Assembly (NCBI GenBank): GCA_016839515.1
Contig: JAEOUE010000031.1
Span: 1-58,446 of the forward strand
Source of the DNA: Candidatus Hodarchaeum mangrovi
GTDB lineage: Archaea; Asgardarchaeota; Heimdallarchaeia; Hodarchaeales; Hodarchaeaceae
Direction: 5' to 3'
DNA: 58,446 nucleotides
Part shown: positions 13,901 through 29,345 of the stretch, piece by piece
How positions within the stretch are numbered: the first letter of the stretch is position 1
How the letters are laid out: each line of letters starts with the position of its first letter
Notes under the pieces: model-generated
Seen by the model: only the letters and a program-made list of their open reading frames with translations
What the model was told of the DNA's origin: nothing
Database searches by the model: none
Translations under genes and position numbers: made by a program

Positions 13901-14004
13901 CGGGCCCTACGAGATTTGAACCCGCGACCTCTCTCGAGAAGATATGAATAACCAACTCTTTTGCTCCGGAGGCAAGCGCTCTGTCCATACTGAGCTAAGG
14001 GCCC
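13901..14004 (-). tRNA. tRNA-Arg(CCG) with 29-nt intron at non-canonical 41/42 (13933-13961)
   Basis: Cloverleaf GGGCCCT...AGGGCCC, anticodon arm CTTGC-CTCCGGA-GCA|AG restored by intron removal; relaxed BHB. Confidence 0.9.
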
Positions 14005-14036
14005 TTGTTATATATTTAAATAAGATCATTGAAGAA

Positions 14037-14141
14037 CGGACTCGAGGGGATTTGAACCCCCGAACCCTCTGCTTTCTCAACGAACTTTAGTAAATTTTCA
14101 TATAGGAGGCAGATGCTCTATCCATGCTGAGCTACGAGTCC
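14037..14141 (-). tRNA. tRNA-Arg(CCT) with 29-nt canonical 37/38 intron (14074-14102)
   Basis: GGACTCG acceptor, TCTGC-CTCCTA|A-GCAGA, TTCAAAT loop. Confidence 0.92.
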
Positions 14142-14171
14142 AAATTTCGTAATATATATTATTTAGGAAAA

Positions 14172-14249
14172 TGGCGGATCCGAGGGGATTTGAACCCCCG
14201 GCCTGCGACTTAGAAGGCCGCCGCTCTGTCCATGCTGAGCTACGGATCC
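14172..14249 (-). tRNA. tRNA-Arg(TCT), intronless, CCA encoded
   Basis: GGATCCG acceptor, GCGGC-CTTCTAA-GTCGC, ends GCCA. Confidence 0.95.
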
Positions 14250-28918: not shown

Positions 28919-28954
28919 AAAAATATTCCCTTTTACTTTTTTAGAATTAAAAAT

Positions 28955-29253
28955 GGATCTGTAGCCCTAAACACTAACTCTACGACCACATTTATGGATC
29001 TTGTCCTAATTCAGTCGAGTTCTCTGTGAAGGGCTATATTGATCCGAGTTCCTGTTGTTTAAGAGGGTTGACCCTGCTTTTCATAGAAGGATGAGACACC
29101 CAATCTCATGCGAGAGCCCGTCTCCTAATCTTGTTGGAGAATGCTCAGGATTTACCTACTTTTTTGCTCCTTTATTCATCTGGGACAATTTACCCATCCT
29201 CAGGTCCTCGAGAAGTAGGGGAATCGCCTTCATCGCAAATAAAGTAAGGACTC
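28955..29253. ncRNA. ~300-nt structured non-coding RNA, family unassigned (minus strand favoured)
   Basis: GC-enriched intergenic island with many nested helices (GGATC/GATCC, TAGCCCT/AGGGCTA, GAGTTCCT/AGGACTC, ATGAGA/TCTCAT, TCTCC/GGAGA, CCTACTT/AAGTAGG, TGGG/CCCA); T-run follows the minus-strand 3' end. Confidence 0.75.
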
Positions 29254-29345
29254 TTTCCTACAAAAACTTTTCTGTTTTATGATAGAATTGGATTTTTTGA
29301 GAAACTTTTTATTAAAATGCTTAAATTCTATAGAAGTGGAGAGAA

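Follow-up and report, generated by a model that had tools for sequence, protein, structure and literature searches.

A conserved three-hairpin RNA gene in "Candidatus Hodarchaeum mangrovi," probably an H/ACA guide of the Pab40 class

We identified an RNA gene of ∼285 nt on the minus strand of a 58,446-nt contig (JAEOUE010000031.1; the whole of this stretch is called the window here) from the Asgard archaeon "Candidatus Hodarchaeum mangrovi." The element is a real, expressed, discrete noncoding RNA gene, and it is very probably an Asgard member of the Pab40/Pf7/Afu4/sR-h45 class of multihairpin H/ACA guide small RNAs (sRNAs), which would direct pseudouridylation of 23S rRNA. It spans positions 28955 to 29240 (5′ end approximate), an extent drawn from the match to a covariance model built from the genus alignment (R1; match at 28951 to 29243), from the borders of the conserved block in 21 genus homologs, and from the cover of metatranscriptome contigs (28966 to 29228). 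A first-pass annotation had read the same interval as a U3-like chaperone of pre-rRNA, which we weigh below together with other identities.

As a guide of this class, the RNA would bind L7Ae at its kink-turns (K-turns) and Cbf5-Nop10(-Gar1) at the lower stem and ACA box; both strands of a pocket would pair with 23S rRNA around an unpaired U-N dinucleotide, and Cbf5 would isomerize the U. Protein binding and pseudouridine formation by the element are predictions from sequence. The same genome carries genes for Cbf5 (434 bits) and Nop10 (41.7 bits) and two L7Ae-family genes. That the RNA is bound by L7Ae, as the first-pass annotation also supposed, is plausible because genuine K-turn signatures are present.

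Conservation, strand, and expression

By BLAST, every one of the 21 other genus genomes has the block (68 to 82% identity), and it was not found in 39 additional genomes from the same order or class. With R1, matches were obtained in 36 of the 83 genomes of the class and in 64 of 151 genomes drawn evenly across the phylum; the latter matches were 249 to 343 nt long and had E-values as low as 1e-21. Beyond the genus, the matches within the class came from family f3 (13 of 31 genomes), and the remaining families of the class gave nothing better than a weak partial match (G078, family f5). Elsewhere in the phylum the RNA was found, for example, in 21 of 25 genomes of family f14, 5 of 5 of f20, and 3 of 4 of f8. 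Apart from the partial match in f5, the matches listed were 242 to 343 nt long, corresponding to the full length of the model; the f8 locus L090 scored 91 bits. One genus member (G008) has a second, partial copy of 118 nt (L038, 614 to 731; G008:C251:1334-1451; 97.9 bits to R1) ∼900 nt from its full gene.

In the alignment of the 21 genus sequences, conservation begins and ends sharply at ∼28955 and ∼29240. The block has a GC content of 41 to 48%, against 25 to 28% in the adjacent spacers, and the flanking genes have 29 to 42%. The first-pass annotation had correctly described a GC-enriched block between dnaG and coaD, and its gene identities agree with the neighbors that we found, a Toprim/DnaG-like protein gene and a cytidylyltransferase-like protein gene. 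The order DnaG, RNA, PPAT, M50 protease is kept in the genus. Outside it, synteny with dnaG is lost, and in f3 the orientation of the RNA relative to dnaG is inverted.

The strand was read from the helices themselves. Among helix cells that are not Watson-Crick pairs, 93 are G-U when read as the minus strand and 15 when read as the plus strand, and this G-U excess identifies the minus strand as correct, as the first-pass annotation had assumed. The bias also appears when the count is limited to helices predicted on both strands (T1 to T3, C2, and C4), with 20 G-U cells on the minus strand and 1 on the plus strand.

The element is represented in metatranscriptomes by four runs from three studies, each with one contig of 180 to 221 nt; from such assembled contigs, the strand and exact RNA ends are not readable. 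All four contigs lie inside 28966 to 29228 and leave uncovered the 255 nt of dnaG and the part of coaD that were compared alongside. The first-pass reading of the element as a discrete noncoding RNA is supported. In three of the four contigs, each from a different run, one end falls within the same 4 nt (29225 to 29228), just inside the 5′ strand of a terminal K-turn (Kt-1, described below), and the 5′ end of the mature RNA may lie there. Two further features on the minus strand frame the gene. At 29259 to 29272, ∼22 nt before the conserved RNA sequence starts, a purine-rich stretch runs into a T-rich one; this arrangement, recurrent in the genus alignment, resembles B recognition element (BRE)/TATA sequences and may act as the promoter. 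A T-rich tract directly 3′ of the RNA (28945 to 28954) places five T's after the last helix, and as T4 to T8 tracts also follow the f3 homologs, it is a likely terminator.

Hairpins, K-turns, and predicted targets in 23S rRNA

Single-sequence folding of the element was unremarkable (z-scores of −1.35 for the minus and −2.39 for the plus strand), and the "heavily base-paired" character claimed for it in the first pass emerges only by comparison. Of the 1,134 cells that make up 57 curated pairs in the genus alignment, 95.1% are paired; compensatory changes occur in 9 of the pairs. No shuffle out of 500 reached the covariation score, and sliding the partners past each other lowered pairing to 27 to 51%. 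The pairs form three hairpins, each with a lower stem, an internal loop (the pocket), and an upper stem, a layout that distant homologs make plain and that recurs in the minimum-free-energy fold of a GC-rich homolog. In the distant homologs, an ACA follows each hairpin, and the upper part of each holds a K-turn or K-loop. Within the window, the AAA of motif 1 stands at +14, and the ACA of motif 3 stands at +15 from the G of GUUA. Extra helices close motifs 2 and 3 outside their ACA boxes.

Motif 1 carries the clearest guide. Its lower stem (P1) joins 29213 to 29219 with 29155 to 29161 in an 8-pair helix (helix S) that has undergone compensatory changes at 3 pairs. The 5′ guide strand of its pocket, CUCGAGG (29206 to 29212), pairs with CCUCGA of 23S rRNA, and the 3′ guide strand, GCAAAA (29162 to 29167), pairs with UUGC; the cores UCGAGG and GCA[A/U] are each present in 45 of 46 homologs. 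The ANA box (29151 to 29153), AAA here and ACA in other families, starts 14 nt after the first base of the 3′ guide, and ACA has the same spacing in 10 of 12 loci of other families. Above the pocket, the upper stem and K-turn (29169 to 29205) consist of a nonbulged strand (29197 to 29205), a bulged strand (29169 to 29180), and a hairpin insert that forms the canonical stem (C-stem; 29181 to 29196). The G-A pairs of this K-turn are kept in 20 to 21 of 21 genus sequences, and its 3b.3n position is G.A in 8, U.U in 10, and G.U in 3. The CCCA/TGGG insert occurs in this form only in this genome among the 21; elsewhere in the genus the apex is a K-loop without a C-stem (19 of 21), and one sequence (G016) has a different GC-rich insert.

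An additional K-turn, Kt-1, pairs the 5′ end of the RNA with the segment just past the motif-1 ANA box and is an addition to the H/ACA plan. Its bulged strand (29227 to 29237), box C-like, comprises a C-stem, a 3-nt bulge, G-A, and the noncanonical (NC) stem; its nonbulged strand (29142 to 29149), examined in the same K-turn conservation tests, is box D-like. The signature is kept in 20 of 21 genus sequences (G in 21, A in 20, with the 3-nt bulge variable) and in 12 of 12 loci of other families (11 parsed, 1 by eye), where the C-stem has undergone compensatory changes (AGC/GCU, AGU/AUU, GAC/GUU, and AAU/GUU). It is absent from family f3. The strings that the first-pass annotation quoted for two K-turns are present on the minus strand where it placed them, namely, TGC-GAT-GA-AGG (29237 to 29227) with CCT-GA-GCA (29149 to 29142) and CCCA-GAT-GA (29184 to 29176) with GA-TGGG (29198 to 29193). 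Their G-A pairs are near-invariant, but the CCCA/TGGG stem is the insertion peculiar to this genome. Similarly, the "self-paired spacers" CCTACTT/AAGTAGG (29219 to 29213/29161 to 29155) do pair, but as the lower stem of an H/ACA motif; the second of the two K-turns is the K-turn of motif 1.

Motif 2, the central hairpin (29050 to 29140; helices C1 to C4), has an outer helix UCC/GGA and a lower stem of 29122 to 29128 with 29059 to 29065. Its K-turn is formed by G-A at 29102 to 29109 (20 to 21 of 21 genus sequences) and A-U-G-A at 29078 to 29088 (AUGA in 21 of 21), below an apical hairpin at 29089 to 29101. The ACA box (29053 to 29055), present in all 21, lies 14 nt after helix C3a. The 12-mer GCAGGGTCAACC (29077 to 29066), which the first-pass annotation regarded as antisense to 16S rRNA, supplies helix C3a with its 3′ strand, makes up part of the pocket, and pairs with GGCUCU at 29112 to 29117; the helix that holds it (helix 7) is paired in 99.2% of cells in the genus. 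In one genus member (G010; L022/L055), an extra, hairpin-capable stretch of ∼37 nt lies between motifs 2 and 3.

Motif 3, the 3′ hairpin (28955 to 29045; helices T1 to T4), is closed by a helix of 29041 to 29045 with 28955 to 28959 and has a lower stem of 29030 to 29034 with 28964 to 28968. The 5′ strand of its pocket (29018 to 29028) contains AGAGAAC, and the 3′ strand (28969 to 28982) contains GUUAGUG; both AGAGAAC and GUUA are kept across the genus and in other families. The ACA box (28960 to 28962) is present in 20 to 21 of 21 genus sequences. In other families, the K-turn of motif 3 has its 3′-strand G-A in 12 of 12 loci and its 5′-strand UGA in 10 of 12. GGATCAA (29045 to 29039), also correctly located in the first pass and there taken as a second antisense element, turned out to be the 5′ strand of the covarying helix that closes this hairpin.

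Targets were sought with a bipartite scan (X, then U-N, then Y) using the motif-1 pocket strands UCGAGG and GCA[A/U] against five 23S rRNA sequences, four of them complete and from four families and one partial from a genus member (G005). In all five, GGCUUGC[U-N]CCUCGAUGU was the top site, with 10 to 12 bp; the runner-up had 6 to 7 bp in three sequences, and two had no other site. The 23S sequence of a second genus member (G007) is identical to that of G005 at this target, where the strands of the window's own RNA, CUCGAGG and GCAAAA, form 6 and 4 pairs. The predicted target of motif 1 is a uridine of the peptidyl-transferase region, located at the 3′ end of helix 89 (the U in GGCUUGC-U-N-CCUCGAU). 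For motif 3, the most likely target would be the loop of helix 69, addressed in an atypical "UNUN" mode: GUUA and GAGAG fit UAAC and CUCUC, which flank UAUA(A) in the helix-69 region GAGUAACUAUAACUCUCUU. A simple search of four rRNAs for complements of the conserved loops gave sporadic matches only. Two side observations came from the rRNA searches. Contig G000:C310 (3,092 nt) of the window's genome (G000) contains, at position ∼417, a bacterial-type 23S peptidyl-transferase segment, the only 23S fragment in the genome, and was probably assembled from contaminating DNA; and the 23S match in G119 spans 4,804 nt.

Class assignment and competing identities

The link to a known family runs through family f8. 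In a permissive Rfam scan, the f8 locus L090 matched RF00064 (HgcG) with an E-value of 2.7e-9 and 38.2 bits over model positions 1 to 276, in an alignment that includes the pocket, K-loop, and ACA of hairpin 1 and the pocket, K-turn, and ACA of hairpin 3. Supporting this assignment, a whole-genome HgcG search of G114 returned a single match (E-value, 4.2e-10; 40.7 bits), which fell at the R1 locus. A literature search for Asgard H/ACA RNA, U3, or K-turn RNA, which did not extend to supplements, found nothing relevant.

According to Muller et al. (2008; PMC2377435), Pab40, Pf7, Afu4, and Pho40 have three H/ACA motifs each; motif 1 of Pab40 guides Psi2588 of 23S rRNA, motif 3 guides Psi2016 in stem-loop 69, and motif 2 is described as structurally ambiguous and weakly active. 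Both modified sites are described there as highly conserved in eukaryotes. The Asgard RNA shares with Pab40, Pf7, and Afu4 (RF00064), as these are described, a length of ∼235 to 290 nt, three tandem hairpins, K-turns or K-loops, and ANA boxes; a motif 1 predicted to be directed to the peptidyl-transferase region of 23S rRNA and a motif 3 that would be directed to stem-loop 69; and an irregular middle motif with a large or ambiguous loop (PMC2377435, PMC4652768). It differs in the box C/D-like K-turn around motif 1, in the helices that close motifs 2 and 3, and in the 5′ guide of motif 3, the 3′ flank of helix 69 being CUCUC in Asgard archaea. In sR-h45, a double stem-loop H/ACA RNA of Haloferax volcanii, as reported in PMC7075261, the 5′ stem-loop serves a uridine of domain V and is joined by a 56-nt linker to a 3′ stem-loop for helix 69, in which two uridines are held as unpaired UNUN and an n+15 rule applies on the 3′ side of the pocket. 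The Asgard RNA resembles this account in its 5′ hairpin predicted to be directed to domain V, structured linker, and 3′ hairpin that would be directed to helix 69, with a pocket of short duplexes around unpaired UNUN and n+15 spacing of the ACA.

Several observations weigh against assignment to the Pab40 class. The HgcG matches in f8 (38 to 41 bits) fall under the Rfam gathering score of 77, and an HgcG search found nothing in four of five other genomes carrying the RNA. The window's own sequence did not match HgcG, even at E-values of ≤10, and neither did its genome; the link is transitive. At the locus itself, no Rfam model reached its gathering score, the matches at E-values of ≤10 were all at chance level, and ten homologous loci of other families likewise had no match at gathering score. 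The likeness to sR-h45 is by description only, and its 5′ stem-loop is reported to target a site between helices 90 and 93, unlike the site predicted here. The internal loop of motif 2 has only 3/4 nt if helix C3a forms, and the 3-bp helix beside its K-turn is broken in this genome. In motif 3, the upper-stem K-turn lacks its second G-A here and in 18 of 21 genus sequences and is canonical in 3 of 21; its fit to helix 69 amounts to 4 + 5 bp with 5 unpaired bases, atypical and found by eye, and a canonical scan with varied trims and gaps gave no consistent site of at least 9 bp. Unlike in the H/ACA descriptions consulted, the extra helices enclose the boxes of motifs 2 and 3, so that each ACA lies within an internal loop. 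Because the genome's own 23S rRNA is unassembled at the target sites, the targets were read from two genus relatives, G005 and G007. Finally, the motif-1 target U, which we take to be the counterpart of Psi2588 of Pab40, was equated with it by numbering offsets and not by sequence comparison.

The U3-like reading, in which two K-turns bind L7Ae and the 12-mer pairs with the 5′ end of 16S rRNA to aid folding of the small subunit, is extremely improbable. In form the element does resemble eukaryotic U3, with a helix connecting two K-turns (in the order box C-like, D′-like, C′-like, D-like) and a length of ∼300 nt, and the 12-mer at 29066 to 29077 is indeed complementary to the textbook 16S 5′ sequence, with ∼0.005 such matches expected per 300 nt. 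The organism's own rRNA does not fit. The genus 16S rRNA reads CCGTT[T/C]GATCCTGACGGA in 10 of 10 genomes holding the site; in the window's genome (G000:C44) it reads CCGUUUGAUCCUGACGG (in a longer reading, ...CCGUUUGAUCCUGACGGAG). Because this 5′ end departs from the textbook sequence, the 12-mer drops to 9 contiguous pairs (1 G-U), with 7 for the G012/G007 types. In f3, the 16S 5′ end is different again and the RNA variants differ as well, leaving 5 to 7 pairs. Across the phylum, the 12-mer segment varies (GUUAACC, GCAAACC, GCCAGUACC) without matching changes in 16S rRNA. Of the two features to be compared in homologs, the G-A pairs of the K-turns are nearly invariant and the antisense 12-mer is not conserved. 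Moreover, the 12-mer is the 3′ strand of a helix inside a hairpin, Rfam gave no U3 match at the locus, the domains stand in the opposite order to those of U3, and the K-turns are parts of hairpins of the H/ACA type, with ACA boxes after them.

General antisense pairing to rRNA was also rejected. The longest complementary runs to 16S, leader, and 23S sequences were within shuffles in five of six comparisons; in the sixth, in one f3 genome and at a different place, the run was reached by 3 of 60 shuffles. For the hinge pairing that U3 makes with the pre-rRNA leader, the longest run against 600 nt of the genome's own leader and 5′ part of 16S rRNA was 11 nt, a length that 48 of 60 shuffles reach. 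Antisense 12-mers to the textbook 16S site, with wobble allowed, number 4 in the window, against 0.9 expected. Regarding 16S rRNA itself, the 5′ end in the genus (G000:C44 [L076], 364 to 381; L074; L104) departs from the common archaeal sequence, and the 16S match in G007 spans 2,225 nt, ∼750 nt beyond the 1,478-position model.

A composite particle, in which Kt-1 of the H/ACA guide also recruits Nop5 and fibrillarin to give a fused C/D-H/ACA RNP loosely like the eukaryotic composite scaRNAs, strikes us as unlikely; such a particle might have a second activity or help to stabilize the end of the RNA. The retention of Kt-1 in 20 of 21 genus sequences and all 12 loci of other families, with its compensatory C-stem changes and strands resembling boxes C and D, would fit such a particle, and the Pyrococcus H/ACA RNA Pab21 is described as sharing a transcript with a C/D motif (PMC2377435, PMC4652768). 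Nevertheless, there is no free 12-nt guide beside the D box, because the spacers of 25 to 26 nt pair together; f3 carries the RNA without Kt-1; the three contigs that stop at 29225 to 29228 hint weakly that Kt-1 may be missing from the mature form; and the sole Rfam C/D match is at chance level (snoR30; E-value, 4.7). The same paired spacers speak against a plain box C/D sRNA with guides of ∼12 nt, in spite of the presence of a K-turn and a K-loop. On a broader scale, the ancient guide for helices 89 and 69 may have gained, in most Asgard lineages, a C/D-type K-turn that holds motif 1 and its ACA box in a clamp, with the other two ACA boxes enclosed by extra helices; if Nop5 and fibrillarin were recruited, its architecture would be a forerunner of eukaryotic composite C/D-H/ACA RNAs, a scenario that we hold to be unlikely.

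The remaining possibility is an H/ACA-like scaffold that no longer guides, serving in an RNP for rRNA folding or assembly, or an L7Ae-bound RNA of another function. Motif 2 nearly lacks a pocket, the motif-3 K-turn is degenerate in 18 of 21 genus sequences, the ACA boxes are enclosed by the extra helices, and a clean motif-3 target was not found. Against this stand the near-invariance of the motif-1 pocket strands in 45 of 46 homologs and their fit to a single 23S site, with the U-N dinucleotide in canonical geometry and the ANA box at a distance of 14 nt; such conservation and target geometry are as a working guide predicts, and we consider a nonguiding scaffold very unlikely.

Other candidate identities were discarded. 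Signal recognition particle (SRP) RNA came into question because Archaea_SRP was not found in the window's genome (91% complete), but in 15 of 21 genus genomes Archaea_SRP lies at other loci while the element is also carried, and it has no match here. RNase P or MRP RNA is likewise rejected: the RNase P RNA is on contig C39, there is no match at the locus, and a GGAAAGAGUCC-like string (29245 to 29260) is unconserved. The Rfam comparison proposed in the first pass gives neither SRP RNA nor RNase P RNA at the locus. A conservation pattern of paired RNA makes a small protein encoded by a 75-amino-acid open reading frame (29055 to 29282, plus strand) improbable. Against a leader or 3′ untranslated region of dnaG or coaD stand the position of the RNA on the opposite strand, the loss of synteny outside the genus, and the inverted orientation relative to dnaG in f3.

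Genomic setting and meaning for Asgard rRNA modification

Outside the genus, the immediate neighbors of the RNA gene repeatedly include RNA-modification and tRNA genes, with PheRS and Trp/TyrRS genes nearby. In two genera of f3, the next gene downstream, on the same strand, encodes a C5 cytosine methyltransferase (L059, 1960 to 2946; L060, 1901 to 2881), and in f8 and f25 a TRM5/TYW2 methyltransferase gene adjoins the RNA gene (L090, 1823 to 2680; L092, 92 to 1015). Elsewhere in the window, the minus strand at 13901 to 14249 carries three tRNA genes in a row, two of which have insertions of ∼30 nt in or after the anticodon arm; these are probable introns.

The tempting lead of an archaeal U3 is removed by these results: the element is not one. 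Rfam misses the gene here and, at gathering score, also misses the 10 loci of other families that were scanned; assignment to the Pab40 class supplies it with a function, and the covariance model R1 lets annotators find it. Under this assignment, RNA-guided pseudouridylation would be retained in Asgard archaea at two sites of the large-subunit rRNA, both highly conserved in eukaryotic rRNA according to Muller et al. As an oddity in how an H/ACA RNP is built, the C/D-like clamp around motif 1 is small and testable, and it occurs in the archaea most closely related to eukaryotes.

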